Source of the DNA: an uncultured Gemmatimonadota bacterium
GTDB taxonomy: Bacteria > JAAXHH01
Reading direction: 5' to 3'
DNA: 64,000 nt
NCBI GenBank assembly: GCA_951812955.1
Contig: OX638340.1
Span: 896,001-960,000 of the forward strand
Each line of letters starts with the position of its first letter. Positions within the stretch are counted from its first letter, which is position 1. Positions 7,139 to 35,859 of the stretch are shown piece after piece. Below the pieces are notes generated by a model. The model ran no database searches, was not told the DNA's origin, and saw only the letters and a program-made list of their open reading frames with translations. A program made the translations under genes and the position numbers.

Positions 7139-7166
7139 TCAAGCACTCAAGCGCAACGGCACTGCC

Positions 7167-8096: not shown

Positions 8097-8122
8097 GGTA
8101 AGCTCCCGCATCGGGTTACGTC

Positions 8123-10195: not shown

Positions 10196-10198
10196 CCC

Positions 10199-18086: not shown

Positions 18087-18434
18087 ATGCCCGTCAACGA
18101 GATGATCCATACCATGCTGGAGGAATTGCGGCAGATCGCCGACACGGAGGTTCACGTGGGCAAACCCCTACATATCGGGGATTCCTATGTGGTTCCGGTT
18201 TCCAGGCTGTCCCTGGGGTTCGGTGCCGGGGGGTTTGGCGGCGAGGCCGATCAGAAGAGGGGGGCGGGGGGCGGTGTATCGGTCGAACCGGTCGCGTTTC
18301 TGGTCATCCAACAGGATCGCGCGCAACTGCTGCATATGAATTCGCCCAGCAGTCCCATGGGCAAGCTGCTGGATATCATGCCGGACGTCATCGAGGAACT
18401 GAAGAAGTATACCAGAAAAGACGGCGATCAGTAG
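18087..18434 (+). CDS. YtfJ/GerW-family small protein
   Basis: 115 aa with the characteristic glycine-rich core (GFGAGGFGGE...GAGGGVSVEPVAFLVI). GGAG-type RBS upstream. Transcribed divergently from lexA. Confidence 0.55.
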   Translation: MPVNEMIHTMLEELRQIADTEVHVGKPLHIGDSYVVPVSRLSLGFGAGGFGGEADQKRGAGGGVSVEPVAFLVIQQDRAQLLHMNSPSSPMGKLLDIMPDVIEELKKYTRKDGDQ

Positions 18435-20422
18435 ACCAGAGGCGCTACGGTCTTCGAAATCAGCGCGACGGCTACCGTGGCCATGCCGACCAATCCCGTG
18501 CCACAGGCATATCCGGCCGCGAGCACGGGCGTGTACCGCATCCATCTTTGCCTGCCGAACTTCCTTTCCATGTAGAACCTGCCCAGCAGTGCGCCGAAAA
18601 ACTGGGGAATGAAGGCGTGGGGCACCGTTCCCACGCTGGCGATCATACCGAAAATAAGCATGACAGGTAGATTGAAGGCTGCCAGGACGGCGTAGGCCAA
18701 TACGCCGAAAGCTGCGCCGCCTATCATGTAGGGGATTTTCAGCGCTTCGATCAGGTAGCTGGACTCGAATCCCGACCCGGCCGTGCTGGAATACCACAGC
18801 GCCTGCATCGTGGCCTGCTGCTGCCAGAACTTCTGCGCGTAGGGATAGGCCTGAGACGGAATAGGCGCGAGCCCCCAGACGAAGTGCCAGAACAGGAGAC
18901 TGCAGACCAGCAAAACGGGGATCATGACCAGCTCGGCCTTCAGCACGCTCGTGAACCGTGTTCCGGTGAGCTCGACTTCTCTAAAGGCCTGGGCCTGCCC
19001 CCCGTAGTTGAAAATCGGAATGGGCGCGAACCAGATGTCCACCCCCTTGTAGCCGCTGAGGATAAACGTGGCTTCCTTAATGAGGGGGAACTGCAGGTCG
19101 GCGCCCGTGATCGCGCGCAGGCGGGCGCTCGCGTACGAACTGATTGGCGTGTAAACGAACCCGTAGAACACGAAAAAGAGGATGGGGAACCCGGGCACCA
19201 GGCGCCAGCTCAGTACGACGTACCCAACTGTCAGAAGCAGAAAAGCGCCTAGAATCAGGGAGAAGGGAAAATCCCCCCTGCCGGTCGGCGTGGCGTTCCC
19301 GCTTGCAGATCCGCCCTTCGACTCTTCGCGCCCTTTTCCGCTCTTCCTTTTCCTGAGCCCGGCCAAAATGCTCCACCCGCCGATCAGCGCGACGGCTAAG
19401 CCCGTGCCGATGCGTACGCTCATCCAGAAATCGATATCGTTGACCAGCGTGGTCTGGATGGCGTCCATGCCCGGCGACCACGTACGCAGTATATTCAGAT
19501 CGTAGAGCAGCGGGTTGAGGACCACGGTAAGCAAAGCCCCGATGGCGGAACCGACCACGATCCAGAATGGCAGGACAAACCCCGTCAGCACTGGTCCCAG
19601 TCCCAGCTCGACCGCCATGGCCGCGGCCGGCAGAATGTTCTCGGTATTGCGCGTCAGGTCTGCAAAGGGAATGGGAATCAGTGTGATCGGTTCGGCCAGC
19701 AGCGCGCCCGTGACTGCCGGTATGCCGATATAGAACGCCCCGAATACGAGTCCCAGCATGGCCCCGATGCTGAATGCGCGCCAGCGCCATGATTCCTGTC
19801 CCGCCGAACTCTCCGCCAGGGCCGTGGCGCCTTCCGCCTGGATAGGAGCCAGGGGAAAGGGAAGGCGTTCCACGTCGGCCGTAACGCGGAATAATCCGTA
19901 ACCCAGCGTAAAGGCGCTCGCCCGGTTGAAGATGTGGAGCACGGCGACGAGCAGTATCGGCACGAGCCATTCCCCGTGCAGCAGCGTGCGGAGCACGATG
20001 GCTTCGGAGTCTCCACCGGGAGAGATCCACGAGGGAATCTGTTCGTCGATGCCGAAAGCCCGGGCTCCGGGGGACTGGACGAAGTACTGGTACCAGATCA
20101 GCTGGGCAAAGGGGCCCCCTGAAAGGGCCAGGCCCACGCCGGCGGTGAGGCTGGCCGCCACGTAGTACAGCATGTAAATTTCCTGGCGGCTGAGCTTGGT
20201 GAAGGACCGGCGCGCGACCTCGATAAACAGGATGATCGTGGTCCACTCCGCCGCGGGCCCCAGGCTCTGTCCGGCGATCAGGTTCAGGTAGATCGAACCG
20301 GGGATCATGAACAGCCCGAGAAAGACGATCCCAATGACCGTCTTTACGTTGAATCCTTCCTCGTAGACCTGGGGATGGTCGGAAAAGGCGGAGGTTGGCA
20401 GGTCGTCCTTAACTAGGGTCAT
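18428..20422 (-). CDS. polytopic membrane transporter, probably OPT (oligopeptide transporter) superfamily
   Basis: 664 aa and highly hydrophobic with about 15 or more predicted TM segments. The N-terminal region resembles OPT-family architecture. The call is by resemblance only. Confidence 0.45.
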   Translation of the reverse strand: MTLVKDDLPTSAFSDHPQVYEEGFNVKTVIGIVFLGLFMIPGSIYLNLIAGQSLGPAAEWTTIILFIEVARRSFTKLSRQEIYMLYYVAASLTAGVGLALSGGPFAQLIWYQYFVQSPGARAFGIDEQIPSWISPGGDSEAIVLRTLLHGEWLVPILLVAVLHIFNRASAFTLGYGLFRVTADVERLPFPLAPIQAEGATALAESSAGQESWRWRAFSIGAMLGLVFGAFYIGIPAVTGALLAEPITLIPIPFADLTRNTENILPAAAMAVELGLGPVLTGFVLPFWIVVGSAIGALLTVVLNPLLYDLNILRTWSPGMDAIQTTLVNDIDFWMSVRIGTGLAVALIGGWSILAGLRKRKSGKGREESKGGSASGNATPTGRGDFPFSLILGAFLLLTVGYVVLSWRLVPGFPILFFVFYGFVYTPISSYASARLRAITGADLQFPLIKEATFILSGYKGVDIWFAPIPIFNYGGQAQAFREVELTGTRFTSVLKAELVMIPVLLVCSLLFWHFVWGLAPIPSQAYPYAQKFWQQQATMQALWYSSTAGSGFESSYLIEALKIPYMIGGAAFGVLAYAVLAAFNLPVMLIFGMIASVGTVPHAFIPQFFGALLGRFYMERKFGRQRWMRYTPVLAAGYACGTGLVGMATVAVALISKTVAPLVY

Positions 20423-20443
20423 GCCCTGGTTCTTTCGGAGGCG

Positions 20444-20980
20444 TTATGGATCCGGTGAGGTTTCGCCGGGGGCCTGCTTCAGCCAGACGTCCTCAACGTT
20501 GAACTGTCTTCCCGAGGAGTGTCGGATTACCATGGAGGTGCGAACCAGCCTCAGACCGTCGAAAGTGAAGCGGTCCTCGAACTGCTGGTTATCATCGGTT
20601 ATGAAGTAGAAGAAACTGTCCAGAACGCTCCACCGTCCGTTCTGGATACGGACGACCGTGGAATCCGATACAGCGGTCGTATCGACCTGGCCATATCGGC
20701 CGTTGACACTGAGGCGGAGCAGGCCCCGTACCTGGGGAGGAACCAGCACGGTTTGTTCCAGCACGCTTTCGGAATCGGTCTGCGGGGCAAAGTTGACCGT
20801 GCGGCTTTCAAGATCGTAGATTCCGACGAGGGGGCGGGCGATATTGCCGGGACCGACATTGTTTTCGGCGCACCCGGCGATCAACGCGCTCAAGAGCAAA
20901 CCGTAAGAAAGGATCTGCTTGATCAAGGTTTTCTCCGGCGGGTTGACCACGAAATCGCGCAATGCCCCTGGGCGTTCCAT
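20444..20980 (-). CDS. hypothetical lipoprotein
   Basis: Signal peptide with lipobox (KQILSYGLLLSALIAGC). An alternative TTG start at 20926, preceded by GGAG, would give MIKQIL... 21 bp downstream of the OPT-like gene start on the same strand. Confidence 0.5.
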   Translation of the reverse strand: MERPGALRDFVVNPPEKTLIKQILSYGLLLSALIAGCAENNVGPGNIARPLVGIYDLESRTVNFAPQTDSESVLEQTVLVPPQVRGLLRLSVNGRYGQVDTTAVSDSTVVRIQNGRWSVLDSFFYFITDDNQQFEDRFTFDGLRLVRTSMVIRHSSGRQFNVEDVWLKQAPGETSPDP

Positions 20981-21065: not shown

Positions 21066-21275
21066 GCGATTACAGGTCCGTCCAACGGCATATTTCGCTT
21101 GACGTGCGCGGCCCGTCGGGTTAGAAGTGATGGGGTTTATCCGGCGGGATTCGCGTCGCCGGGTGGTGAATACGCTCCACGAAGGCGACGCCCGTTTCGT
21201 AACGAATTAAAGCGACGCCGGGCAATCCGTGCGCGTTTTCCGGTATCCTTTATTGCAATGGAGAAACGAAATCCC

Positions 21276-22379
21276 ATGTCAGCGTTCAGAGCGGGTATCA
21301 TCGGATGCGGCAACATCAGTAGTGTGTACTTCGAGGCGGGGCGTAAGTTCGAGGCTTTCGACGTGGTCGCATGTGCCGACATGGTCCCGGAACGGTCGCG
21401 GGCCAGGGCCGCCGAATTCGAGGGCGTGGAAGCCCGCACGGCCGAGGCCCTGCTAAACGATCCCGCCATAGAGATCGTCATCAACCTTACCATACCCGCC
21501 GCACATGCCGGAATCGCCCGGGCTGCTTTGGAGCACGGAAAATCGGTTTATACAGAAAAACCCATGGCGATCCGGAAAGAGGATGGGCGGGCCTTGCTCG
21601 ATCTCGCACGGAGATCGGGAAAACTGGTGGGCGGAGCGCCGGACACCTTCATGGGGGCCGGCATTCAGACCTGCCGAAAGCTCATCGACGACGGTTGGAT
21701 CGGCGAACCGGTGGCCGCCACGGCCTTTATGCTGAGTCCGGGACACGAGAGGTGGCATCCCGACCCCGGTTTCTTCTACAAGCCCGGCGCCGGTCCCATG
21801 CTGGACATGGGTCCGTACTACGTCACGGCGCTGGTCAATCTGCTGGGACCGGTCGCCCGGCTTACGGGCGCCACACGCATCACCCGTTCCGAGCGCACGA
21901 TAACGAGCGAACCTTTGTACGGAGAGAAAATAGAGGTCGAAGTGCCCACGCACCTGGCGGGCGTGATCGAATTCGAAAGCGGACCCATCGGGACGATCGT
22001 GACCAGTTTCGACGTGTGGCACCATGAACTGCCCCGCATCGAGATATACGGTACGGAGGGATCCCTGAGCGTACCCGATCCCAATTCGTTCGGCGGACCC
22101 GTGAAACTGCGCCGCGCCGGAGCCGAAACCTGGACGGAAATGCCCCTGAGCCACGGTTACGAGGAACAAAGCCGCGGGTTGGGCGTGGCGGACATGGTCT
22201 ATGCCCTGCGCTCGGGACGCCCGCACCGGGCCAGCGGCGAACTGACCTTTCACGTGCTTGACGTCATGCTGTCCATCGAGGAATCATCGGAGTCGGGACG
22301 GCATATTAACCTGGAAAGCACCTGTACCAGGCCGGCGCCCCTTCCGCTAGAACTGGCGCCTTACACCCTGGACCCATGA
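21276..22379 (+). CDS. Gfo/Idh/MocA-family NAD(P)-dependent oxidoreductase
   Basis: Start [15 protein letters not shown]... (Rossmann GxGxxG) at the ATG at 21276 with GGAG 12 nt upstream. The ORF-track start at 21099 is over-extended. Confidence 0.8.
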
Positions 22380-22410: not shown

Positions 22411-23319
22411 ATGCCCGATCATCCCGTAAGAAACCTGACCGATCTCCTGCCACGACTCGAACGGCTGATGGACCGCATCGAATCGCTCCTCTCCGCTTAT
22501 ACCGGAGGGTCGGGCAGCGAGTCCGGCGACGTCTATGCCGATTCGGTCGCATTCCAATGGCGGAAAAAGGGCGGAAAGGGATTCCTCGAACCGATCGTAC
22601 ACCCCGACCTGGCGGACCTGGGCGATCTCTTCGGCCTCGACCGCGAGATCGGGATCCTTGTCCGGAATACCCGCCAGTTCGTCCGGGGAATGCCCGCGAA
22701 CAACACGCTGATCTGGGGAGAACGCGGAACCGGCAAGTCCTCGGTGGTAAAGGGACTGCTGGCCCGTTTCGCCGGCGAGGGACTGCGCATGATCGAAGTC
22801 CGCAAGCAGGATCTGACGGATCTGCCCGAGATCGTTGAGATCCTGTGGGACCGCCCCGAGCGTTTCGTCCTGTTCTGCGACGACCTGTCCTTTTTGGATG
22901 ACGAATCCGTCTACCTCGAGCTCAAAGCGCTCCTCGAAGGCAGTCTTTCCGCCCGTCCCGACAACGTGCTCGTCTACGCCACGTCCAACCGCAGACACCT
23001 GATGTCGGAGAAGTTCGCCGACAACACGCCGCGATTCAGTCTGGACGACGACGAAATCCATCCACAGGAGACCGTGGAGGAGAAGGTTTCGTTGAGCGAC
23101 CGTTTCGGCCTCTCCATCGGATTCTATCGGATCACCCAGGACACCTATTTCGAAATCGTTCGCCATCTCGTCGATCAACGCGGAATCCATATCGACGGGG
23201 ACCTGCTGCGGCGGGAGTCCCTCCGGTGGGTGCAGCGCGCCAGCGGCCGTTCGGGCAGGGTCGCGCGGCAGTTCGTGGACGATCTGGAGGGGCGGCTCAA
23301 ACTGGGCGAATTGCCGTAG
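22411..23319 (+). CDS. DUF815-family AAA-like ATP-binding protein
   Basis: 302 aa with Walker A (GERGTGKSS) and Walker B (FVLFCDDLSF). Confidence 0.6.
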   Translation: MPDHPVRNLTDLLPRLERLMDRIESLLSAYTGGSGSESGDVYADSVAFQWRKKGGKGFLEPIVHPDLADLGDLFGLDREIGILVRNTRQFVRGMPANNTLIWGERGTGKSSVVKGLLARFAGEGLRMIEVRKQDLTDLPEIVEILWDRPERFVLFCDDLSFLDDESVYLELKALLEGSLSARPDNVLVYATSNRRHLMSEKFADNTPRFSLDDDEIHPQETVEEKVSLSDRFGLSIGFYRITQDTYFEIVRHLVDQRGIHIDGDLLRRESLRWVQRASGRSGRVARQFVDDLEGRLKLGELP

Positions 23320-23364: not shown

Positions 23365-23393
23365 TTGACACCGTATTTGACACAGCCTAATTA
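23365..23393 (+). promoter_or_regulatory. putative sigma70-type promoter for the molybdenum hydroxylase operon (-35 TTGACA 23365-23370, 17-bp spacer, -10 TAATTA)
   Basis: CACTTGACACC with a second TTGACA 12 bp downstream. AT-rich 180-bp intergenic region. Confidence 0.3.
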
Positions 23394-23411
23394 TGTAGAT
23401 CGTATTTTTGT

Positions 23412-23503: not shown

Positions 23504-24376
23504 TTGCACGCATTCGACTATGCCACGCCGGAAAGCGTGGCCGATGCGGTGGTAATGCTCAGCGATCACGGGGAAAACGCCTGTGTGCTCGCGGGCGGAA
23601 CGGACCTGATCGTTCAGCTTCGGGAGAACCGGCGGCGTACCGACCTAGTGGTGGACGTCAAGAAAATCGCCGAACTGAACGCGTTGTCCTACAACGTCGC
23701 GACCGGTCTCACGATCGGAGCGGCCGTGCCCTGTTACCGGATCTACGGAGACGCGGAAATCGCAGCGGCCTATCCGGGACTCATGGACGCGGCGAAACTG
23801 GTAGGAGGCACGGGGATCCAGGGCAGGGCCAGCCTGGGTGGGAACCTGTGCAACGCATCCCCGGCGGGCGATACGATTCCCCCCATGATTGTCCTGGGCG
23901 GCGAGGCGGAAATCGCCGGTCCCGCCGGAACCCGGAACGTGGCGGTGGAAGACTTCTGTACGGCGCCCGGCCGCACCGTGCTGGCGGACGGCGAGTTCCT
24001 GGTGTCGCTCCGTTTCCCCGCGCCCGCGCCGAATTCCGGTGCGTTCTACCGGAGGTTCATCCCCCGCAACGAAATGGATATCGCCGTGGTGGGCGTCGGC
24101 GCGTCGGTGGTTCTCAGTGGCGACGGTTCTTCCTTCGTCTCCGCACGCATCGCCATAGGCGCCGTGGCCCCGACGCCGTTATTTGTAAGTGAAGCCGGAG
24201 CGGCCCTGGCCGGACAGCCCGTGTCCGACGAGTCGATCCAACGGGCTGCCGATATAGCCCGCGACGCGGCCCGGCCCATCAGCGACATGCGGGGTACCGC
24301 GGAATACCGAAAACATCTGACCAGCGTATTGACGCGCCGGGTTCTGCAGGGCGCGGTACAACGAGCCAAGGAGTAG
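23504..24376 (+). CDS. molybdenum hydroxylase FAD-binding (medium) subunit (CoxM/XdhB-like)
   Basis: 290 aa with the FAD-binding motif AGGTDLIVQL and a CO-dehydrogenase-flavoprotein C-terminal-domain-like region. Confidence 0.8.
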   Translation: MHAFDYATPESVADAVVMLSDHGENACVLAGGTDLIVQLRENRRRTDLVVDVKKIAELNALSYNVATGLTIGAAVPCYRIYGDAEIAAAYPGLMDAAKLVGGTGIQGRASLGGNLCNASPAGDTIPPMIVLGGEAEIAGPAGTRNVAVEDFCTAPGRTVLADGEFLVSLRFPAPAPNSGAFYRRFIPRNEMDIAVVGVGASVVLSGDGSSFVSARIAIGAVAPTPLFVSEAGAALAGQPVSDESIQRAADIARDAARPISDMRGTAEYRKHLTSVLTRRVLQGAVQRAKE

Positions 24377-24382
24377 CCGTCG

Positions 24383-24853
24383 ATGTCGAAAAAAGTACAC
24401 GTACAGACGAACATAAACGGAGAATCCGTCGATTTTCTTTGTGAACCGCGCAACAGCCTGCTCGAAGTACTGCGCGACGAGCTGGATCTCACCGGCGCGA
24501 AGGAAGGGTGCAACAACGGCAATTGCGGCGCCTGCAACGTGATCATGGACGGCAGGCTGGTCAATTCCTGCTGCGTGCTGGGCGTAGAAGCCGACGGTTG
24601 CGAGTTAACGACCATCGAAGGGGTCGGGTCGGCCGCTAACCTGCATCCGTTGCAGCAGAAGTTCCTGGAACACGCGGCGCTGCAGTGCGGCATATGCACG
24701 CCCGGGTTCATCGTTTCCGCCAAGGCCCTGCTGGACCGTAATCCGAACCCCTCCGAGGACGAGGTTCGCTACTGGCTGGCCGGCAATCTCTGCCGCTGCA
24801 CCGGATACGACAAAATCGTCCGCGCGGTCCTGGACGCCAGGAACGGCGCCTGA
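24383..24853 (+). CDS. molybdenum hydroxylase (2Fe-2S)-binding small subunit (CoxS/XdhC-like)
   Basis: 156 aa with two [2Fe-2S] motifs (CNNGNCGACNV and CGICTPGF...CRCTGY). Confidence 0.85.
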   Translation: MSKKVHVQTNINGESVDFLCEPRNSLLEVLRDELDLTGAKEGCNNGNCGACNVIMDGRLVNSCCVLGVEADGCELTTIEGVGSAANLHPLQQKFLEHAALQCGICTPGFIVSAKALLDRNPNPSEDEVRYWLAGNLCRCTGYDKIVRAVLDARNGA

Positions 24854-24946
24854 CCCGTCGCCTGACCCGTAACGATCGGCGCGCGTCTGCTCAGGGAACG
24901 CGGCCGGAAATGGCCAAATTGGAATGACTAAACGGAGGTAAGAAAC

Positions 24947-27223
24947 GTGTCACAAAACGGACATAAAGTCATCGGCACCCGTCCAATACGCCATGACGGG
25001 GTGGATAAGGTTACCGGCCGGGCGATCTACGGCGCCGATATACAGCTGACGGGCCTGCTTTATGGCGCAATAAAGCGCAGTCCCCACCCGCATGCGCGGA
25101 TCAAGCATATCGACACGAGCCGGGCGGAGGCCCATCCTGGGGTCCGGGCGGTAGTCACAGCCCACGACCTTCCTCAGATCGCCGACAAGATCGCCGATCT
25201 GGGCGAAGCGATCGTCAACCTGCGCGATTCCAGCAATAACGTGCTGGCCTATGGCAAGGTGCTTTACAAGGGCCATGCCGTCGCCGGCGTCGCGGCAATC
25301 AACCTGCACGTCGCCCAGGAAGCGGTGGAACTGATCGACGTGGAATACGAACTGCTGCCCCACGTGACGGGCGTACTGGAGGCCATGGAAGACGGCGCCC
25401 CGATCTTGCACGAGGACATGAAGACCACGTCCATGGGCGAGGAAACGGACAAGGTCAGCAATATCGCCAACCACTTCCAGCACAAGATGGGCGAGCCGGA
25501 CGACGGTTTTGCCGAAGCCGACGTGGTGATCGAGCGCGAATTCACGACGCAGACCGTCCACCAGGGCTATATCGAGTCTCATAACGCCACGGCGCTCTGG
25601 AACGAAGAAGGCCAGCTCACCGTCTGGACGAGTACGCAGGGCGCTTTTGCCGTACGGGATCAACTGGCCGAGATCCTCCAGATGCCCGTTTCGAAGGTCA
25701 AGATCGTACCCCTGGAGATCGGCGGCGGATTCGGAGGCAAGATTTCAGTTTACCTGGACCCGGTCGCCGCGCTGCTTTCGAAGAAGACGGGGCATCCCGT
25801 AAAGATGACGATGACCCGCGACGAGGTATTCGAAGCAACGGGCCCGACGCCGGGTTCCTACCTGAAGGTCAAGATGGGCGCCACCAGCGACGGACGGCTT
25901 ACGGCCGCCACGGCGTACATGGCCTACGAGGCCGGTGCCTATCCCGGCTCACCGGTCGGCGCGGGCGCGGGCTGCATATTCACGCCCTACGACATACCCA
26001 ATGTGCAGATCGACGGGTACGACGTGTGCGTAAACAAGCCCAAGACGAACGCCTACCGCGCGCCCGGGGCCACCAATGCGGCCTATGCGTCCGAAACGGT
26101 CGTGGACGAAATATGCGAGAAAATCGGCATGGACCCACTCGAGTTCCGGGTGAAGAACGGCGCGAAGGAAGGTGGTCGCCGGGCCGACGGTCCCGTGCAT
26201 CCGCGCATCGGCTGCATCGAGACCACCCAAGCCGCGCTCAACAGCGAACACTACCAATCCACGCTCGAGAAGACGGCGAACGGCAAGGTACGCGGACGGG
26301 GCGTAGCATCCGGTTACTGGTTCAACTTCAACGGCGGAAGGTCGGCCATCTCGGTAAGCATCAATCCCGACGGCACCATCAACATGCTCGAGGGTTCTAC
26401 CGATATCGGCGGGTCACGGGCATCCATCGCCATGCAGCTGGCCGAGACCATCGGTCTTGAAGCAACCGACATCAAGCCCTACGTGGTGGATACGGACTCG
26501 ATCGGCTACACCGACGTGACCGGCGGCAGCCGCACCACCTTCGGAACGGGCTACGCCGCCCACGCCACGGGCCTGGCCCTCATACGCGAAATCAAGGAGA
26601 GGGCGTCGAAGCTCTGGGACGTGCCTGCCGACGCCATCGACTTCGCCGACGGGGTCTTCTCCTACAAGGACGACGCGGAAAAGCGGGGCACCTTCAAGGA
26701 GGTTGCCAGCCAGGCCGGCGACGCCGGCGGTCCCGTGGTCGCCCAGGTCAGCACGAATCCCGACGGCAGCGGCGGCGGCGCCTTCGCCACCCACGTCGTC
26801 GACGTGGAAGTCGACAGGGAAACGGGCAAGGTGGACATACTCCGCTATACCGCGGTCCAGGACGCCGGAACGGCCATTCACCCAAGCTACGTGGAAGGCC
26901 AGATGCAGGGCGGCGTGGTGCAAGGCATCGGCTGGGGTCTCAACGAGGAGTACATCTACAACGACGAAGGCTCCATGACCAACGCCAGTTTCCTGGATTA
27001 CCGTATGCCCACGACGCTCGACCTGCCCATGATCGAGACGATCATCGTGGAAGTGCCCAACGAGTCCCATCCCTACGGCGTGCGGGGCGTCGGTGAAGTG
27101 CCGATCGTACCGCCTCCGGCCGCTCTCTCCAACGCGATCTACGACGCGACGGGCGTAAGGCTGCGTGACCTGCCCATGTCCCCGCCCCGGGTACAGAAGG
27201 CCGTAGCGGAGAACGGCGGGTAA
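24947..27223 (+). CDS. molybdopterin-binding large subunit of xanthine dehydrogenase/aldehyde oxidase-family molybdenum hydroxylase (substrate unknown)
   Basis: 758 aa, GTG start with GGAGG RBS. GGGFGGK motif and C-terminal GVGE active-site glutamate region. The active-site loop reads AYRAPGA, which matches neither form I CODH (AYRCSFR) nor form II (AYRGAGR). Confidence 0.85.
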   Translation: MSQNGHKVIGTRPIRHDGVDKVTGRAIYGADIQLTGLLYGAIKRSPHPHARIKHIDTSRAEAHPGVRAVVTAHDLPQIADKIADLGEAIVNLRDSSNNVLAYGKVLYKGHAVAGVAAINLHVAQEAVELIDVEYELLPHVTGVLEAMEDGAPILHEDMKTTSMGEETDKVSNIANHFQHKMGEPDDGFAEADVVIEREFTTQTVHQGYIESHNATALWNEEGQLTVWTSTQGAFAVRDQLAEILQMPVSKVKIVPLEIGGGFGGKISVYLDPVAALLSKKTGHPVKMTMTRDEVFEATGPTPGSYLKVKMGATSDGRLTAATAYMAYEAGAYPGSPVGAGAGCIFTPYDIPNVQIDGYDVCVNKPKTNAYRAPGATNAAYASETVVDEICEKIGMDPLEFRVKNGAKEGGRRADGPVHPRIGCIETTQAALNSEHYQSTLEKTANGKVRGRGVASGYWFNFNGGRSAISVSINPDGTINMLEGSTDIGGSRASIAMQLAETIGLEATDIKPYVVDTDSIGYTDVTGGSRTTFGTGYAAHATGLALIREIKERASKLWDVPADAIDFADGVFSYKDDAEKRGTFKEVASQAGDAGGPVVAQVSTNPDGSGGGAFATHVVDVEVDRETGKVDILRYTAVQDAGTAIHPSYVEGQMQGGVVQGIGWGLNEEYIYNDEGSMTNASFLDYRMPTTLDLPMIETIIVEVPNESHPYGVRGVGEVPIVPPPAALSNAIYDATGVRLRDLPMSPPRVQKAVAENGG

Positions 27224-27267
27224 GTGCTGGGAGCAGGGTGAAGGAAAGCGTTTCAGATGTGAAATAT

Positions 27268-27300
27268 GAAAGGGCGGGAGAGTCATCTTCCCGCCCTTTC
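27268..27300 (+). terminator. stem-loop terminator candidate after the Mo-hydroxylase operon
   Basis: GAAAGGGCGGGA (27268-27279) pairs perfectly with TCCCGCCCTTTC (27289-27300) around a 9-nt loop. Lies 45 bp after the large-subunit stop. No canonical U-tract. Confidence 0.5.
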
Positions 27301-27379
27301 GCATTGACGGTAAATGAAGCCCGGTCTTTTGGTAGACCCTCAATTATCCGACGATTTCGGAACTGCGGAAAGAAAACCC

Positions 27380-27652
27380 ATGGCGACCATCTACATCCCG
27401 TCCCTCATGCGCGATCTGACCGGCGGCATGGAGGTCATCCAGATTGAAGGGGCCGATATGCGGCAGATCATCGCCAACCTGGAGGCGGCCTACCCCGGAT
27501 TTAAGCAACGCCTGCTGGAGGAAGGTACGCAACGCATCAAACCCAACATCGCCGTCATGATAGACGGCCGGAACGCCCGCCGCATCCTGATCGACAAGGT
27601 GAACGAAAACAGCGAGATACACTTCCTGCCTGCGATCAGCGGGGGAAGTTGA
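27380..27652 (+). CDS. MoaD/ThiS-family ubiquitin-like sulfur-carrier protein (C-terminus ...ISGGS)
   Basis: About 90 aa from MATIYIPSLMRDL... with a beta-grasp-like pattern ending in GlyGly followed by one extra Ser. The ORF-track start at 27314 is probably over-extended. Confidence 0.5.
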   Translation: MATIYIPSLMRDLTGGMEVIQIEGADMRQIIANLEAAYPGFKQRLLEEGTQRIKPNIAVMIDGRNARRILIDKVNENSEIHFLPAISGGS

Positions 27653-27653
27653 T

Positions 27654-27920
27654 ATGCGTCTTCCCGTTCGCGTATATCCCAGGGCAGGACGTAACGAAGT
27701 GGCGCGGAACGACGACAGCAGCCTTTCCGTCCGGGTCACGGCCGTGCCGGAGGACGGTAAGGCCAACGCCGCATTGCTGGAGTTGCTGGCGGATCGGCTG
27801 AAAATCCCCCGGTCCAGCATCCGCATTGTCAGGGGACGACGGACACGCGACAAGGTCGTGCAGTTGGATGGTCTGACCAGTGAGGATCTTACGCGTCTGG
27901 CAGGATCGGCGGGTCGATAA
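27654..27920 (+). CDS. DUF167 (YggU-like) family protein
   Basis: 88 aa (VRVYPRAGRNEV...DGKANAALLELLA...). Start lies 2 bp after the MoaD-like stop, suggesting translational coupling. Confidence 0.6.
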   Translation: MRLPVRVYPRAGRNEVARNDDSSLSVRVTAVPEDGKANAALLELLADRLKIPRSSIRIVRGRRTRDKVVQLDGLTSEDLTRLAGSAGR

Positions 27921-27966: not shown

Positions 27967-30378
27967 CTACAATTTCCGGTTCAGCTTGCGGAGGTGATCG
28001 ACCGTAAGGACTCTTTCCCGGGCCGGGGCGCCGGCGGGACCGGCCGCTTTGTTTCGGGGCTTCCTGTTCCGTCGTTTCTTCTGTGAATCCACCTTTGCAG
28101 ACGCCTCCGGCTCGCTCGCCGCGACCGGTTGTTCGGACTTATCCGTTTTGCCGCCGACGGCCTGTGCTGCCTGCATGTTCTTCGCCGGCCTCCGCCTTCT
28201 TCGGCGATCCGGCTTCCCGTTCTGCTGACCCTGCTCTTCCCGCATGGACAGCGAAATCCGGTTTCTCTCCTGGTCTACACCGAGCACACGCACCTCTACC
28301 TGCTGCCCCACCTTGACCGCTTCGCCCGCATGCTTGACATACCGGTCCACGAGCTGGCTGATATGCACGAGCCCATCGAGGTGGACCCCGACATCCACGA
28401 AGGCGCCGAAGTTCGTGACGTTGGTGACGACACCGTTGAGCCGCATCCCTTCCTTGACTTCATCGATGGTATGGATCCCTTCGGTGTATTCAACCGGCTT
28501 GAACGCGTCGCGCGGGTCGCGCCCCGGCCGTGCCAGTTCCACCATGATGTCCTCGAGGGTAGGCAGTCCCACGGTGTCGTTGACGTAGGAATCGAGCGCG
28601 ATTCGGCTCCGTAACTCAGCATCGTCCATGAGATCCTTCACCCCGCACTTCTGGTCGCTGGCCATCCGGTCCACGATACCGTAGCTTTCAGGATGGACGG
28701 CACTGGCATCCAGGGGGTTCTCGCCGTTTCCTATTCTCAGGAAGCCCGCGGCCTGTTCGAAGGCCCGGGGGCCCAGGTTCGGAACCTGCTGCAGATCCGT
28801 CCTCGCTGAGAAAGGTCCCGCCGACTCGCGGTGGGCAACGATGTGCTTCGCCAGTGCGGGTCCGATGCCGGACACGTAGGACAGGAGCTGGGCGCTGGCC
28901 GTATTCACTTCGACACCCACGTTGTTCACGCAACTCATCACCACGTCGTCCAGACTCTTCTTCAGAGACCCCTGGTCGACGTCGTGCTGGTATTGCCCGA
29001 CGCCTATCGATTTAGGATCGATCTTAACCAGTTCGGCAAGGGGATCCATAAGCCGCCGACCGATCGAAATCGCTCCGCGTACGGTGACATCCAACCTGGG
29101 GAATTCCTCCCGTGCCACGGCCGACGCCGAATAGACCGAAGCGCCGCTTTCGTTCACGAGCACGATGGACGGATCTCCGGCAAACTCGACCGTACGAAGG
29201 AACTGGGTCGTCTCCCGTCCGGCCGTCCCGTTGCCGACGGCGATGGCATCGAACTCGTACTGCTCGTGCAGGGACCGTAAGATCCGCGCCGCCCTTTCCT
29301 TCTTCTTCTCCCCCGAGTGGGGAAAGATGCTCGCTCTGTCCAGCAGTTTACCCTGTTCGTCCAGGCAGACGATCTTGCAACCCGTGCGGAAACCCGGGTC
29401 GATCGCCATGATGCGGCGGCGGCCCATGGGAGGCGCCATCAGCAGTTCCCGCAGGTTCCGCGCAAATACGAGGGTCGCCTCTTCTTCGGCCTTCTGGCGG
29501 ACATGGGACCTCAATTCCGTTTCGAGAGACAGCGAAAGCAGGCGGCGGTAACTGTCGGAGACGGCCAGGCGTACCTGCTCGGACGCGGGGCCTTCACCCT
29601 TGACGAACTGTTTCTCGAGACCCGCGATCGCCTCTCCTTCCGGCGGGGCGATGGTCAAGCGCAACACGTCCTCTTTCTCACCGCGCCGAATGGCGAGCAC
29701 GCGGTGCGAAGGCGCTTTCACAGCCGGCTCGGACCAATCGAAATAATCCCGGAACTTGATCCCCGATGATTCCTTTTCCGCTACCACTGTAGACCGGATT
29801 ACCGCCTTTTCGTGGAACAGCCGGCGCAAAGTAGACCTCGCCGTCGGATCTTCGTTAATCCATTCGGCGATGATGTCGCGAGCGCCGGACAGGGCATCTT
29901 CCGCGGTGGCGACTTCCTTTTCCGGATCGACGAATGCCGCGGCTTCCGCTTCCAGGTCCACGTCCTCCTGCCCGAATATGCGCTCCGCCAGGGGTTCCAG
30001 GCCCTTCTCCCGGGCCGCCGTGGCCCTTGTGCGACGCTTCGGACGAAATGGAAGGTAGATATCTTCCAGCGCGGTCAGAGTTTCCGCGGCGCGTACTTTC
30101 GATTCCAGCTCGTCGGTGAGCAGGGAGCGGTCTTTCAGGGAGGCAAGGATCGAAGTCCTGCGCTTTTCGAGTTCGCGGAGTTGGACGATCCGGTCTCGGA
30201 TCGCCGTGACGGCCACTTCGTCAAGCGACCCCGTTCGCTCTTTGCGATAGCGCGCGATAAAGGGTACCGTGGCTTCTTCATCCAGCAGCCGCGCTACGGC
30301 TTCCACCTGCTCGGGCCGGATGCCCAGTTCATTGGATATCTGCGTGATATGCGTGGTGATATGCGTGTCTTCACTCAT
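27967..30378 (-). CDS. tex: transcription accessory protein Tex (YqgF/HhH/S1 domains) with a basic C-terminal tail
   Basis: 803 aa; N-terminus (PEQVEAVARLLDEEATVPFIARYRKERTG) and C-terminal S1 domain are diagnostic of Tex. Confidence 0.85.
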   Translation of the reverse strand: MSEDTHITTHITQISNELGIRPEQVEAVARLLDEEATVPFIARYRKERTGSLDEVAVTAIRDRIVQLRELEKRRTSILASLKDRSLLTDELESKVRAAETLTALEDIYLPFRPKRRTRATAAREKGLEPLAERIFGQEDVDLEAEAAAFVDPEKEVATAEDALSGARDIIAEWINEDPTARSTLRRLFHEKAVIRSTVVAEKESSGIKFRDYFDWSEPAVKAPSHRVLAIRRGEKEDVLRLTIAPPEGEAIAGLEKQFVKGEGPASEQVRLAVSDSYRRLLSLSLETELRSHVRQKAEEEATLVFARNLRELLMAPPMGRRRIMAIDPGFRTGCKIVCLDEQGKLLDRASIFPHSGEKKKERAARILRSLHEQYEFDAIAVGNGTAGRETTQFLRTVEFAGDPSIVLVNESGASVYSASAVAREEFPRLDVTVRGAISIGRRLMDPLAELVKIDPKSIGVGQYQHDVDQGSLKKSLDDVVMSCVNNVGVEVNTASAQLLSYVSGIGPALAKHIVAHRESAGPFSARTDLQQVPNLGPRAFEQAAGFLRIGNGENPLDASAVHPESYGIVDRMASDQKCGVKDLMDDAELRSRIALDSYVNDTVGLPTLEDIMVELARPGRDPRDAFKPVEYTEGIHTIDEVKEGMRLNGVVTNVTNFGAFVDVGVHLDGLVHISQLVDRYVKHAGEAVKVGQQVEVRVLGVDQERNRISLSMREEQGQQNGKPDRRRRRRPAKNMQAAQAVGGKTDKSEQPVAASEPEASAKVDSQKKRRNRKPRNKAAGPAGAPARERVLTVDHLRKLNRKL

Positions 30379-31609
30379 GATGTTCAGTGGCCTCGCTTGT
30401 CGATCGGCCGCCCAGGATCGTCCTCAGACGCAGGGCTACCCGTTCCGGTTCACCGGGCTTCAGGCAGACCGGTCCGAAAAGCACGATCCCTTCCGAAATC
30501 CTTGCGGAATTGGCCTGGATGGGGGGACTGCCCTGTTGCAGTTCAAGGATCACGTCCAGGGCGGTTTTGCCCAATGCGGATTCGTCCAGTTTCAACTCTG
30601 TCATCGGTACCTCGCTGGGCCTGCTTTCGGTATCTATCGCGAACCGGCATCCCGGAATATCCCCGGCGGCGGCCACGAGTTCATCCATGCGATCCCGCCA
30701 CGCCGCGGCGCGTTCTTCAAGCTCCACTCCGGCAAAACGCCCAAGAGCGGTCAACAGGCCGACGATCTGTTCCTTCCCTACCTTGCAGGGCCTCCCGATT
30801 CCGTGGTGAGGCGCCCCGGGCAGAATCGACTTGTCGATGAGGGATTCGGGTGGATTCCACTGCTGCTTAAGTACGTCCATGTCAAGGTGCTGAAGCGCTA
30901 CGCACATGATGAGGTCCCGGCGGCCGCAGAGGATGCCCGAACCCTGGGGACCGCCGATCGCCTTGCCGCCGCTGAAGGCCACGAGATCGGCCCCCTGGGC
31001 AATGAAAGTCTGCAGGTTCGACCTTGGAGGCAATTGTCCCGCGGCATCGACGATTACCGGAACGCCGCGAGCGTGGGCGACTTCGACGACTTCCTCCAGG
31101 GGCGGCAGGGAGCGGGGATGGGCGACATAGCATATGGCCGCCGTTCGATCCGTGACGGCATCGGCGATCTCCCAGGCTTCGGTGTCCCGCACGCCGGCCC
31201 CGCTGTACCGGTCCGCAATCCCCACCTCGACGAGCTTTACGCCGACGGAACGGATCGCGTGGTCGTAGAAGTTACGCTGGCTGCGGGATATGATGACTTC
31301 GTTCTTCATGCCTTCGGTGTCCGGCAGCCGGTTCATCTTGCCGGGATCCGGTCCGGTGACGCATGCCGCCGTACCTAGAAGGAGACCCGCGGCCGCGCCG
31401 GACGTAACGTATCCTGCTTCGGCTCCGGTGATCTTCGCGATGATCCCGCTCGCCCGGGCCTGGAGTTCGGCGATGTCGACGCAGTACTGCGATGCCTCGC
31501 GCATGGCGTCCGCCACTTCGGGATCCATGATACCGCCGCTTAGTCGTGTCGTGGGTCCCGATGCGTTGATGATCGGACGTATGCCGATCTGCTCGTAGAT
31601 GTTGGGCAT
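30371..31609 (-). CDS. SelA-like (L-seryl-tRNA selenium transferase-fold) PLP-dependent enzyme, DgaE-like
   Basis: Start MPNIYEQIGIRPIINASGPTTRLSGG..., about 412 aa, lacking the SelA N-terminal domain. Stop overlaps the tex start by 8 bp. No selB or selD in the window. Confidence 0.55.
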   Translation of the reverse strand: MPNIYEQIGIRPIINASGPTTRLSGGIMDPEVADAMREASQYCVDIAELQARASGIIAKITGAEAGYVTSGAAAGLLLGTAACVTGPDPGKMNRLPDTEGMKNEVIISRSQRNFYDHAIRSVGVKLVEVGIADRYSGAGVRDTEAWEIADAVTDRTAAICYVAHPRSLPPLEEVVEVAHARGVPVIVDAAGQLPPRSNLQTFIAQGADLVAFSGGKAIGGPQGSGILCGRRDLIMCVALQHLDMDVLKQQWNPPESLIDKSILPGAPHHGIGRPCKVGKEQIVGLLTALGRFAGVELEERAAAWRDRMDELVAAAGDIPGCRFAIDTESRPSEVPMTELKLDESALGKTALDVILELQQGSPPIQANSARISEGIVLFGPVCLKPGEPERVALRLRTILGGRSTSEATEHHE

Positions 31610-31840
31610 GTATGACCCTGGCGTGAATCGAAGGTGGTGCCTAGAAAGCAGCACTAATCCTATTACATCGGACCCTGGTATGCAACCTGTTTTTTTCGCG
31701 TGGGCGGGAGACGGTGGGGTTGCCCGCCGGATCGCATTCCGCGCATGACGCGGAAATACAGGTTTCGATCACGCAGGGAAGGGCGCTCTAGCCGGCGTGG
31801 AACGGCGACCGGCCCGCTGCGTCGACCCACGAGTATTGAA

Positions 31841-31942: not shown

Positions 31943-33388
31943 ATGGCCCACAGAGATTTACAATCGTTCGTCGACCTGCTCCGGGACGAAGGCGAGTTAA
32001 AGGAAATCACCGTCGAAATCGATCCCGACCTGGAGATCAGCGCCATCGCGGACCGCGTGGTCAAACGGAACGGTCCCGCGTTGTTGTTCACCAACGTCAA
32101 GGGCCATGCTGGTATTCCCGTGCTGATCAATACCTTCGGGTCGAAGCGCCGCATGGAACTGGCGCTGGGCGCGGAAGACCTCGACGACATCGCGGCCGAG
32201 ATCGCCGAACTGATCAATCCCCGGATGCCGGCCTCGCTCGCGGGAAAGCTGCAGATGCTGCCCCGGCTTGCCCGGTTGAAGGACACCCAGACGCGGACCG
32301 TCCGCAACGGCCCCTGCCAGGAGGTAGTGGAGACGGACACAGCGTCCTTCGAAACCCTTCCGGTCATCAAATGCTGGCCCGGCGACGGCGGGAAGTACAT
32401 CACCTTCCCCCAGGTCATTACGAAGCATCCCGAAAAGGGGACGCGCAACGTGGGTATGTACCGGCTGCAGGTCTTCGACGACAAGACGCTGGGACTGCAC
32501 TGGCAGCGTCACAAGGGTGGGGCCCACCACTACCACGTCGCGGAACAGGCCGGTAAGCGGCTGGAAGTCGCCGTCGTCCTCGGCCCCGATCCGGAGACCA
32601 TGTACGCCGCGACGGCGCCCCTGCCCGACGAGATCGACGAATACATGCTGGCCGGGTTTCTCCGCAGGCGGCCGGTGGAGCTAGTAAAGTGCCGGACGGT
32701 GGACCTGGAGGTGCCGGCCAACGCCCAGATCGTGCTGGAAGGCTACGCCGAGCCCCGCGAACGGCGTGTCGAGGGTCCCTTCGGCGATCACCAGGGTTAT
32801 TACTCGCTGACCGACGAATACCCGGTATTTCACCTTACGGCCATCACGCGAAGAAAAGAACCCATCTATCCCACGATCATCGTCGGGCCGCCTCCGCAGG
32901 AAGACGGTTGGCTCGGGAAGGCCACCGAACGCATTTTCCTGCCGCTCCTCAAGACCACGCTACCGGAGATCGTGGACATCGACCTGCCCATCGAAGGCAT
33001 TTTTCACAACCTGGCCATCGTATCTATCGACAAACGCTATCCGGGCCACGCCCGGAAGGTGATGCATGCCCTCTGGGGCCTGGGCCAGATGATGTTCACC
33101 AAGGTGATTATCGTTGTGGACAAGGACGTGGACGTGCATAATATGAGGGAGGTCGCCTGGCGGGTCGGGGTATCCATCGATCCGAAACGGGATCTGTTGA
33201 TCAGCGAGGGACCTTGTGACGTCCTGGATTTCGCCGCGCAGACCGCGGATGTAAGTGGCAAGCTGGGCATCGACGCCACCGAGAAATGGCCGGACGAAGG
33301 GTTCGACCGGGGATGGCCGGAAATCCTGCGCATGCCCGACGAGGTCGACCGGCGCATCGATGCGCTATGGCCGAAGCTGGATCTTTGA
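31943..33388 (+). CDS. UbiD-family decarboxylase (futalosine-pathway-associated menaquinone biosynthesis decarboxylase-like)
   Basis: 481 aa with UbiD-family N-terminus and core. Lies immediately upstream of the mqn radical-SAM genes. Confidence 0.8.
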   Translation: MAHRDLQSFVDLLRDEGELKEITVEIDPDLEISAIADRVVKRNGPALLFTNVKGHAGIPVLINTFGSKRRMELALGAEDLDDIAAEIAELINPRMPASLAGKLQMLPRLARLKDTQTRTVRNGPCQEVVETDTASFETLPVIKCWPGDGGKYITFPQVITKHPEKGTRNVGMYRLQVFDDKTLGLHWQRHKGGAHHYHVAEQAGKRLEVAVVLGPDPETMYAATAPLPDEIDEYMLAGFLRRRPVELVKCRTVDLEVPANAQIVLEGYAEPRERRVEGPFGDHQGYYSLTDEYPVFHLTAITRRKEPIYPTIIVGPPPQEDGWLGKATERIFLPLLKTTLPEIVDIDLPIEGIFHNLAIVSIDKRYPGHARKVMHALWGLGQMMFTKVIIVVDKDVDVHNMREVAWRVGVSIDPKRDLLISEGPCDVLDFAAQTADVSGKLGIDATEKWPDEGFDRGWPEILRMPDEVDRRIDALWPKLDL

Positions 33389-33403
33389 TTCAGGGAGAAT
33401 CGG

Positions 33404-34570
33404 ATGTTTGAAGCACTGATCGCCGAAGCAGGCCTTGAGGACATACACGGGAAAGTCGTGGCGGGCGAGCGGCTTTCTGCCGATGACGGGAGAAGGCTGT
33501 ACCGGCACGGTAACCTGCCGGCCGTCGGCTACCTGGCTAATCTCGTTCGCGAGCGCATGCACGGCGAACGGGTCTACTTCGTGCGTAACCAGCACCTGAA
33601 CTACACCAACATCTGCAACAAAAGCTGCCTCTTCTGTTCCTTTTACGCCCTGCCTAAAGATCCGGAAGGATACGTGCTTTCGCCCGACGACATCAGGACG
33701 CGGATGGAGACCTACTCGGACATGCCGATCTCCGAGATCCACATGGTCGGCGGAGTGAACCCCAGGTTGCCCTACGCCTATTACCTGGATATCGTCCGGG
33801 CGATCAAGGAAATGCGGCCTGGCGTGTCGCTCAAGGCCTTCACCATGATCGAGCTTGAGCAGATCCGTAGAATCGCCAAAAAACCCATGGACGAGACCCT
33901 GGCGGACCTGAAAGAGGCCGGGGTGGACGCGCTGCCTGGAGGCGGCGCCGAGGTTTTCAGCGAAAGGGTGCACGAGGAATTGTTCCAGGCCAAATCGGAC
34001 TCCGATAAATGGCTGGAAACCGCGCGCGTAGCACACGAGGTGGGTCTGCCCTCCAACGCGACCATGCTGTACGGCCACGTGGAGCAGACGGAGGAAAAGG
34101 TCTATCACCTCATGAAACTTCGGGAATTGCAGGATGAAACGAACGGGTTCCTGGCCTTCATTCCCCTTTCGTGGCACCCGGAGCGCACGGCTATCGAACA
34201 CCTGCCCGGACCGACGGGTCAGATGGACCTTCGGGAGATCGCGGTCGCACGGCTCATGCTGGACAACGTGCCCCATATCAAGTCGTTCTGGATCATGAAC
34301 ACCCCCGCGGTAACTCAGGTGGGACTGTGGTACGGCGCGGACGACATGGACGGCAGCGTCCTGGAGTACGAAATCACCCGCGATCCCGTTACCGACCGTG
34401 TGCAGGCCCTGACCCATCCCCAGATGCTCGACATGATCAGCGAGTCGGGCCGGCAGCCCGTCGAGCGCGACGCGCTCTACAACGTCGTGGACCGGCCGGA
34501 ATCGATTCGGCCGGCCTATCTGGATCCGGTCGGCGGTGCCACGGCCGACGCCCTCGCGAGCGCAGGATGA
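33404..34570 (+). CDS. radical SAM enzyme of the MqnE/MqnC family (aminofutalosine synthase or cyclic dehypoxanthine-futalosine synthase), paralog 1
   Basis: 388 aa with CNKSCLFC radical-SAM cluster motif and the MqnC/MqnE-type N-terminus (GERLSADDGRRLY). Which paralog it is cannot be decided by eye. Confidence 0.75.
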   Translation: MFEALIAEAGLEDIHGKVVAGERLSADDGRRLYRHGNLPAVGYLANLVRERMHGERVYFVRNQHLNYTNICNKSCLFCSFYALPKDPEGYVLSPDDIRTRMETYSDMPISEIHMVGGVNPRLPYAYYLDIVRAIKEMRPGVSLKAFTMIELEQIRRIAKKPMDETLADLKEAGVDALPGGGAEVFSERVHEELFQAKSDSDKWLETARVAHEVGLPSNATMLYGHVEQTEEKVYHLMKLRELQDETNGFLAFIPLSWHPERTAIEHLPGPTGQMDLREIAVARLMLDNVPHIKSFWIMNTPAVTQVGLWYGADDMDGSVLEYEITRDPVTDRVQALTHPQMLDMISESGRQPVERDALYNVVDRPESIRPAYLDPVGGATADALASAG

Positions 34571-34600
34571 CTCCATGCATCACGAGCGCAGGATGACTTC

Positions 34601-35725: not shown

Positions 35726-35859
35726 GCGAACGTACGCCCGGGCCCAACCCGCTCGTCCCGCCCAACCTGGCGGATTCGCCAATACCGCGACCACCTGGAT
35801 GAACAGGCTGTAATCACCGCCGGAAGGCGTTGACGGAGCAACCGGCGGACGATTGAAGC

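Follow-up and report, generated by a model that had tools for sequence, protein, structure and literature searches.

A CysO-like sulfur-carrier gene linked to a molybdenum hydroxylase of the xanthine oxidase family in uncultured bacteria

Enzymes of the xanthine oxidase family need a sulfurated molybdenum cofactor, and the delivery of this sulfur in bacteria is only partly understood. Here, we describe a locus at positions 23504-27920 of a 64-kb stretch of contig OX638340.1 from an uncultured Gemmatimonadota bacterium; the whole stretch is referred to as the window. The locus holds five genes, all co-oriented: M, S and L, which are predicted from their domain content to encode a molybdenum hydroxylase of the xanthine oxidase family (L/M/S type), D, which encodes a putative sulfur-carrier of beta-grasp fold, and a gene of the DUF167/YggU family (Table 1). 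Comparison with other genomes and with metagenomes reveals how closely D is bound to the enzyme, and how loosely the DUF167 gene is bound to D.

The features that a preliminary description had listed for this region were all recovered by Pfam scan, translation and folding, including the terminator hairpin behind L and a C-terminus of D that consists of Gly-Gly plus one Ser (...PAISGGS). The DUF167 gene does follow D closely, as claimed there, but the spacer from the D stop to the DUF167 start is one base (TGA-T-ATG) and not two. D starts at the ATG at 27380 (MATIYIPS...), where all homologues begin, and not at the first start of its open reading frame (ORF), at 27314.

Table 1. Features of the locus in window coordinates
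Feature	Position	Strand	Basis or remark
Promoter-like match TTGACA-18-AATTAT, 5' of M	23365..23394	+	weak evidence: 2 sites in the region, chance expectation 1.3
M subunit, FAD-binding flavoprotein, 290 aa	23504..24376	+	Pfam FAD_binding_5 143 bits, CO_deh_flav_C 90 bits
S subunit, two [2Fe-2S] domains, 156 aa	24383..24853	+	Pfam Fer2_2 111.5 bits, Fer2 24.3 bits
L subunit, molybdopterin-binding, catalytic, 758 aa	24947..27223	+	Pfam Ald_Xan_dh_C, MoCoBD_1, MoCoBD_2
Active-site loop AYRAPGA in L	26051..26071	+	translation; wider loop KTNAYRAPGATNA at 26042-26080
Perfect 12-bp G+C-rich hairpin between L and D	27268..27300	+	-26.7 kcal/mol, z = -4.7
D, CysO/MoaD-like beta-grasp sulfur-carrier, 90 aa, ending in GG-Ser	27380..27652	+	Pfam ThiS, structure model, homologue starts
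DUF167/YggU-family gene, 88 aa	27654..27920	+	Pfam 83.6 bits (gathering 30.9); TIGR00251 88.7 bits (cut-off 35)

A cassette shared by several phyla

How tightly is D associated with the hydroxylase? Starting from D, one genome per species was scanned (522 relatives) and the best 80 loci were used, 75 of which had enough upstream sequence. By their labels, the metagenome-assembled genomes (MAGs) behind these 80 loci belong to Latescibacterota, Zixiibacteriota, Dehalococcoidia/SAR202/Chloroflexota, Poribacteria and Gemmatimonadetes. In 72 of the 75 genomes, an L orthologue (54-96% identical) precedes D on the same strand, and the gap between the two measures at most 60 nt in 38 genomes, 60-300 nt in 19 (at most 300 nt in 57) and more than 300 nt in 15; the longer spacers that were inspected contain inserted genes. 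Dehalococcoidia whose D is 58% identical have the order M-S-L-D with an L-D gap of 12 nt and unrelated flanks, and a Candidatus (Ca.) Binatus locus has the same order with a gap of 28 nt and different flanks. When the neighbouring ORFs are clustered, M, S, L and D alone are common to all contexts. The genomes that have D without L are few (L051, L068 and L090).

Sampling from the side of the enzyme leads to the same association. Metagenomes were scanned for a DNA pattern encoding K-T-x-A-Y-R-A-P-G, and among the S-L cassettes picked in this way via the L loop, D is directly downstream in 14 of the 15 with enough sequence, compared with just 2 of 14 L genes that have no S directly upstream; D therefore belongs to the full cassette. 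In addition, pairwise distances of D and L correlate with r = 0.88, against 0.89 for S and L (Mantel p = 0.001). M-S-L-D is thus a compact co-inherited unit across several phyla, each with unrelated flanks, and D is tied to the hydroxylase by three independent lines: sampling by D, sampling by L and co-divergence. We found no description of a xanthine-oxidase-family/MoaD-like gene neighbourhood in the searchable literature, and a paper on coxL in sponge symbionts gives no synteny or loop data. Carrier genes interpreted as dedicated to a pterin-cofactor enzyme are already known; what is new here is a putative one for an enzyme of the xanthine oxidase family.

In the close relatives of the window (the window clade), the hairpin stands between L and D. 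None of 200 shuffled sequences folds as well, and the stem is kept while its flanks diverge in seven aligned loci of this clade (L001, L008, L013, L015, L018, L021 and L022); it is not conserved in the marine locus L005. Relatives carry a T-rich tail 3' of the hairpin, TTTTGCTTT. The element resembles an intrinsic terminator or attenuator, and in the window clade transcription is probably weakened or stopped there, after L and before D. Most L-D gaps of Dehalococcoidia and Binatus, at 9-60 nt, are too short for such a hairpin.

A terminator-like hairpin between enzyme and carrier, the three genomes with D and no L, and the labels that public databases give to D ('MoaD/ThiS family protein' or 'molybdopterin synthase sulfur carrier subunit') would all suit a housekeeping MoaD or CysO that lies beside a major molybdenum enzyme by chance, in which case no functional relation would exist between DUF167, D and the hydroxylase. 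We regard this as quite improbable. The adjacency survives from phylum to phylum while all flanks change, and it does so in both sampling directions; D is 50-60% identical across phyla, which fits joint movement with the enzyme genes; and L101 holds a second CysO-like gene besides D. This second gene (L101:11383-11679) is a ThiS-family member with a closer likeness to typical CysO, which ends exactly in GG and lies 7 kb downstream of the cassette D on a low-GC (~36%) marine contig; its presence makes D a distinct paralogue there.

The insertions between L and D, which leave the order L...D intact, were seen in L017, L020, L093-L095, L023 (4156-7887), L037, L038, L049, L063 and L083 (6958-7827). 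They comprise a toxin-antitoxin-like pair (NTase_sub_bind/NTP_transf_2), a 1243-aa protein and, as far as the sequence by itself allows a judgement, a periplasmic-binding-protein-like gene and a PhyH-like gene. L genes of the AYRAPG type also often occur in tandem, or solo with neither M nor S; examples are M-S-L-L-D in L036, L050 and L065, M-S-L-D-L in L048 and L059, and the metagenome loci L104, L112, L122, L132 and others. This suggests that several catalytic L subunits share one M/S(/D) set, and presumably both the solo and the tandem paralogues make use of common M, S and D.

The hydroxylase and the carrier

All Pfam domains of M, S and L score far over their gathering scores. In 68 D-linked L orthologues, with L aligned also to 1rm6 and 8uem, the GVGE glutamate, the STQ and GGGFGGK motifs and the active-site loop are conserved; we take the glutamate, near the C-terminus of L, to be catalytic and TQ and GGGFGGK to be family motifs. 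The AYRAPG core is present in all of the commonest loop variants, with A or S at position seven. Every NCBIfam equivalog nevertheless scores the enzyme far under its cut-off, including those for xanthine dehydrogenase, 4-hydroxybenzoyl-CoA reductase, glyceraldehyde dehydrogenase, PaoC and aerobic CO dehydrogenase. The best matches of L are XdhA_XDHase (463 bits against a cut-off of 780) and 4hydrxCoA_A (455 against 995), and that of S is glyceraldDH_gamma (199.7 bits, cut-off 290), while M meets the 321-position profile of 4-hydroxybenzoyl-CoA reductase beta in two stretches (best over residues 2-117; 142.6 bits against 404.55).

Three identifications were rejected on these grounds. CO dehydrogenase disagrees with the loop, which reads AYRAPGA against AYRCSFR in form I and AYRGAGR in form II, with a CO_dehy_Mo_lg score of 319.5 bits against a cut-off of 991, and with the lack of cox accessory genes in the Pfam scan of the window. 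Xanthine dehydrogenase fails on the XdhA/PucD/XdhB equivalogs (462.7 against 780, 441.8 against 916, 337 against 784 and 234.5 against 850), and 4-hydroxybenzoyl-CoA reductase on its alpha (455 against 995), beta (143 against 405, a split match) and gamma subunits (156 against 258). Loop and equivalog scores therefore agree with the preliminary description, in which the enzyme could not be called a CO dehydrogenase and no substrate could be assigned. Metagenome surveys often list such 'coxL-like' genes under CO dehydrogenase; the AYRAPG loop, taken together with D, marks a separate, unassigned enzyme class.

The hints at a substrate seem to conflict. Judged by bit scores to PDB chains, the solved chains nearest to L are 4-hydroxybenzoyl-CoA reductase alpha (1rm6_A, 300.8 bits), CoxL (8uem_A, 279), KdhL (7dqx_A, 262) and Qor (1t3q_B, 249). 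The loop, in contrast, matches an N-heterocycle hydroxylase: AYRAPG also occurs in the characterised enzyme KdhL of Arthrobacter nicotinovorans, a pyridine-ring hydroxylase of nicotine degradation (PMC8305194). KdhLMS (6-hydroxypseudooxynicotine dehydrogenase, PDB 7DQX) further has the L/M/S architecture and belongs to the same CoxL/Qor/Kdh branch, but its gene context is another, no MoaD-like partner has been reported for it and, identical loop or not, KdhL is just the fifth-best solved match to L. The 4-hydroxybenzoyl-CoA reductase of Thauera aromatica (HcrCAB, PDB 1RM6), although the highest-scoring solved relative, has the loop GAMRGHG in place of AYRAPGA. Its beta subunit carries an extra [4Fe-4S] loop, which the 290-aa M would presumably be without. 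A likeness to this enzyme lies in the CoA-transferase or thioesterase neighbours of some Dehalococcoidia cassettes, AMP-ligase genes being found there as well.

Two further observations concern the enzyme. Recurrent neighbours 3' of D in the Dehalococcoidia loci L026-L066 are a DHDPS-family aldolase, an MR/MLE enolase-superfamily enzyme, an alpha/beta hydrolase and PIG-L; we take the DHDPS, MR/MLE and hydrolase set, together with the GFO/IDH/MocA dehydrogenase of the window clade, to resemble non-phosphorylative sugar-acid catabolism, which would point to an aldehyde oxidoreductase, a lead rather than a finding. In addition, Cys343 of L (window 25973-25975, GAGAGC(I)F) is conserved in 62 of the 68 D-linked orthologues, with no aligned Cys in 4-hydroxybenzoyl-CoA reductase.

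The small MoaD/ThiS-like protein proposed in the preliminary description does have the marks of a beta-grasp carrier. D scores 28.4 bits with Pfam ThiS, whose gathering score is 22.5, and its AlphaFold2 model (pLDDT 87) is matched by Foldseek to CysO with a TM score of 0.91 and a probability of 1.00. In a phmmer search of the PDB, the CysO chain of the Amycolatopsis BexX/CysO complex (4n6e_B, 2.9e-7) and Mycobacterium tuberculosis CysO (3dwg_C, 1.3e-6) are found, with a Thermus MoaD-related protein also among the best solved sequence relatives. D and CysO have a common IP(S/T)(L/I)(M/L)R..TGG start and LPA..GG end, yet their identity is only 25-30%. TIGR01687 moaD_arch and SAMP1 were matched by 20 of the 20 D members tested, all under cut-off (D itself reaches 43.6 bits with TIGR01687, cut-off 49.5), and a Urm1-like model is among the other NCBIfam matches. 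Profiles and predicted structure together indicate that D is a true beta-grasp carrier from the CysO/archaeal-MoaD branch but no equivalog of any named protein. A profile search with the D family retrieves more than 4000 clusters, including Ca. Binatus and Ca. Acidoferrum, and the dN/dS ratio of D (0.11-0.14) indicates purifying selection.

The kinship with CysO-type carriers, which serve metabolite sulfuration, opens the possibility that a D-thiocarboxylate gives its sulfur to a small molecule, the hydroxylase and D then acting in a pathway of thio-compound synthesis or degradation. Models for this are CysO with CysM or BexX and the QbsE/PdtH carriers in thioquinolobactin and PDTC synthesis. 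In the PDTC and quinolobactin operons, genes for a CaiB-like CoA transferase and an AMP ligase accompany that for a ThiS-like carrier (PMC1779556). Comparable genes flank several Dehalococcoidia cassettes, either a CaiB-type CoA transferase immediately 5' or an AMP ligase immediately 3'. Such neighbours are, however, restricted to subsets of related genomes and absent from the window clade, Poribacteria and Binatus, and no CysM, ThiG or BexX-like sulfur acceptor travels with the cassette. A role in metabolite sulfuration is therefore unlikely in our view.

Gly-Gly is invariant in the D family, and what follows it is not. Among the 80 genome loci, 23 D proteins have no tail, 35 have one residue and 22 a longer one, the first 120 D homologues show a comparable mixture of endings, and the residue after GG is S, I, C, R, G or none even among D proteins more than 89% identical. 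An invariant GG followed by a freely drifting tail is what removal of the tail would lead one to expect, and in the window D, with its Ser after GG, exposure of the Gly-Gly would require such trimming. Tails are trimmed in the pairs Mec+/CysO, HcyD/HcyS and QbsD/QbsE. For a MoaD-MoaE fusion, cleavage by a JAMM protease is cited in PMC8832034. Some D homologues (represented by P0226, P0295 and P0192) are annotated as fused, past GG and a linker, to the usual downstream gene type, by eye an alpha/beta hydrolase-like protein, a methyltransferase or a DedA-like membrane protein. These are either cleavable fusions or read-through gene calls; as functional clues the partners were rejected, being the usual 3' genes read through.

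Which genes could serve the maturation of D or of the enzyme? Neither a Pfam scan of about 50 ORFs nor tblastn found coxDEFG, xdhC, ThiF/MoeB, JAMM, MoaE or CysM in the 64-kb window. The absence of adjacent maturation genes (coxDEFG/xdhC) from the preliminary description thus extends to the whole window, whereas the unrelated ubiquitin-like system that it had also considered finds no support, the window having no E1, E2 or JAMM gene; nor was an operon of ubiquitin-like protein with E1/E2/JAMM found in the window or beside D in the loci examined. No E1 or MoaE was detected by tblastn in 95 loci and the window, a weak negative obtained with E. coli MoeB and MoaE as queries; the Pfam-annotated loci have no MoaE either, and the annotated cassette loci no XdhC-family gene. 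Scans with Rfam (gathering threshold and E <= 1) and for tRNAs gave no RNA element and no Moco riboswitch. A Prok-JAB gene is near the cassette in just 7 of the 80 genome loci, all Dehalococcoidia. It encodes a JAMM peptidase of 139 aa with an HSHTHx7SxxD motif and occurs in two Dehalococcoidia groups (L039:1506-1925, minus strand, L047, L052, L066, L083, L089 and L090), where it is read from the other strand and situated some 1-7 kb 5' of the cassette.

With no sulfur-activating enzyme linked to the cassette, D may also act without sulfur transfer, either as an accessory subunit of the hydroxylase or a chaperone of its assembly, or as its ubiquitin-like modifier or regulator, for which TmoB of toluene monooxygenase and SAMP/Urm1-type conjugation are models. 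Its co-divergence with L, as tight as that of S, and its SAMP1 and Urm1-like matches would fit such a role. On the other hand, the invariant GG with free tails points to C-terminal chemistry and not to simple binding, the MoaD-like proteins of a tungsten aldehyde oxidoreductase (AOR) operon, AorD and AorE, are not part of the purified enzyme (PMC6365974), and no E1, E2 or JAMM gene is consistently nearby. We doubt, for these reasons, that D works in this manner.

Possible roles of D

We tentatively favour, with slightly less than an even chance, a reading in which the enzyme is a cytoplasmic molybdenum hydroxylase of the (LMS) type and D, encoded in the same locus, its dedicated sulfur-carrier, which would supply the cofactor of this enzyme. 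The nearest precedent for dedicated cofactor supply is found in tungsten AORs, whose genes MoaD genes strictly adjoin, an arrangement that has been interpreted in this sense (PMC1779556). As with AorD/AorE of Aromatoleum aromaticum, a MoaD-type gene stands beside one pterin-cofactor enzyme and the pair recurs sporadically in distant phyla, in the manner of a mobile cluster. However, AOR clusters often hold MoeB, MoaE or MoaA, which the cassette described here never does in the loci examined, and D is CysO-like and not a typical MoaD. The Moco sulfuration and insertion chaperones of the XdhC/PaoD/CoxF type occupy the slot proposed for D, that of an accessory gene maturing the sulfurated cofactor of xanthine-oxidase-family enzymes, but differ from it in fold and chemistry, their sulfur being a persulfide from cysteine desulfurase.

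In such a scheme, D would be made as a pro-form, from which a JAMM/Mec+-type peptidase encoded elsewhere would remove the extra Ser. The concept is taken over from CysO, whose C-terminus is trimmed by a JAMM peptidase and whose M. tuberculosis system is CysO-CysM-Mec+-MoeZ; the conserved partner of D is instead a molybdenum hydroxylase, and none of CysM, Mec+ and MoeZ lies in the window. The exposed Gly-Gly could then be adenylated and converted into a thiocarboxylate by an unlinked E1 of the MoeB/MoeZ type, and the sulfur would pass to the pterin cofactor of the hydroxylase, either as the dithiolene sulfurs, as for a dedicated MoaD, or as the terminal Mo=S ligand. In the window clade, the hairpin may uncouple the expression of D and DUF167 from that of the enzyme, and DUF167 would be a recently relocated gene that rides on the D transcript outside this mechanism.

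Several points weigh against a dedicated sulfur supply by D. The donor role is read from gene neighbourhood and homology. In the 95 loci, the cassette is not accompanied by MoaE, E1, XdhC or a cysteine desulfurase, so that the sulfur acceptor is not indicated, and in the window clade D is parted from L by the terminator-like hairpin. D scores under every NCBIfam cut-off. Its model aligns to canonical MoaD chains with a TM score of only ~0.6, and the bacterial moaD model TIGR01682 is matched, weakly, by 10 of 20 D members, which weakens the view of D as the small subunit of molybdopterin synthase. The dithiolene role is somewhat disfavoured because D is near CysO and MoaE is constantly absent. 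The Mo=S role is disfavoured in turn because it has no precedent: we know of no thiocarboxylate that donates the Mo=S ligand. We consider it improbable that a D-thiocarboxylate, independently of XdhC, serves as the dedicated source of the terminal sulfido (Mo=S) ligand in this hydroxylase clade or repairs the desulfo form; if true, however, this would constitute a new route of Moco sulfuration, carried with its enzyme on a mobile four-gene cassette by abundant uncultured marine and soil bacteria.

Thousands of uncultured bacteria, among them SAR202/Dehalococcoidia, Poribacteria, Latescibacterota and Binatus, have in any case a CysO-like carrier that is bound to a single clade of hydroxylases. 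This extends the tungsten-AOR/MoaD pairing to the xanthine oxidase family and makes D a concrete, testable candidate for enzyme-specific sulfur supply.

DUF167 and the rest of the window

By exact-protein look-ups, close relatives of the window have the gene order GFO-DUF815-M-S-L-D-Tex. In the window, a gene for a DUF815 AAA-type ATPase (22411-23319) lies directly 5' of M, syntenic across the window clade and absent from the cassettes of other phyla; the GFO/IDH/MocA dehydrogenase, a window-clade neighbour, is at 21099-22379, and the convergent Tex (27967-30378, minus strand) bounds the locus 3' of DUF167.

The DUF167 protein is a clear member of its family (YggU, UPF0235), for which we found no function in the literature, and protein cluster P0121 is 100% identical to it. 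Its gene follows D with the same one-base spacing solely in the window and in L008, L009, L015, L016, L018, L020 and L021. In L093-L095, which are independent assemblies, it is a double-frameshift pseudogene (a +1 and a -1 indel) called as a 58-aa remnant, and in L001-L007, L013, L019 and L022 there is no DUF167 and Tex is within ~20 nt of D. Every cassette in other phyla and all metagenome loci examined are without it. The usual context of the family is yggS-(sepF-proC)-yggT-(divIVA)-DUF167, and the closest homologues outside the clade are indeed in a yggS-sepF-proC-yggT-divIVA-DUF167(-ileS) cluster or just before ileS-lspA, with no ThiS gene there. The gene thus moved behind D in one subclade: it is a local relocation, a dispensable, lineage-specific passenger, and not the partner of D.

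Could D and DUF167 nonetheless form a functional two-gene module, as the preliminary description had proposed? The one-base spacer, a Shine-Dalgarno-like GGGGGAAG before the DUF167 start, the same arrangement in seven related loci and the purifying selection that still acts on DUF167 would all be expected of such a pair. Yet the frameshifts, the absence from sister loci and other phyla, a dN/dS of 0.18-0.46, the highest and hence most relaxed in the locus, and nearest outside relatives that sit in a cell-division/yggS-yggT cluster make a joint function very improbable. Hence, of the sulfur-carrier and maturation pair that the preliminary description had considered for the molybdenum enzyme, the link of D to the enzyme stands, whereas the pairing of the MoaD-like gene with DUF167 is confined to a narrow subclade, and DUF167 is removed as a candidate partner. 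Between the window and L015, L018 and L021, DUF167 (27654-27917) has a dS of 1.1-1.5, two to three times the 0.4-0.7 of the adjacent D, L, S and M, which hints that its allele was replaced or independently acquired between subclades.

Some further arrangements in the window deserve mention. At 6101-13624, a MoxR (AAA_3)-DUF58-BatA/VWA cluster precedes an ORF of 1141 aa to which Pfam gives no match; the cluster is of the Bat aerotolerance-operon type and not a coxD/coxE set for the hydroxylase. Two neighbouring ORFs on the minus strand (18428-20980), 664 and 178 aa long, are likewise without a Pfam match; the former looks like a multi-pass membrane protein, and their position is conserved in the related MAGs L001-L007. 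On the minus strand at 27967-31654, the genes for Tex and a SelA-like/class-V PLP enzyme share 8 nt (30371-30378), a pairing conserved in the window clade only. Finally, a futalosine-type menaquinone cluster at 31943-37637, with UbiD-like, two CofH/MqnC-type radical SAM and VitK2_biosynth genes and then DUF362, is syntenic in relatives.

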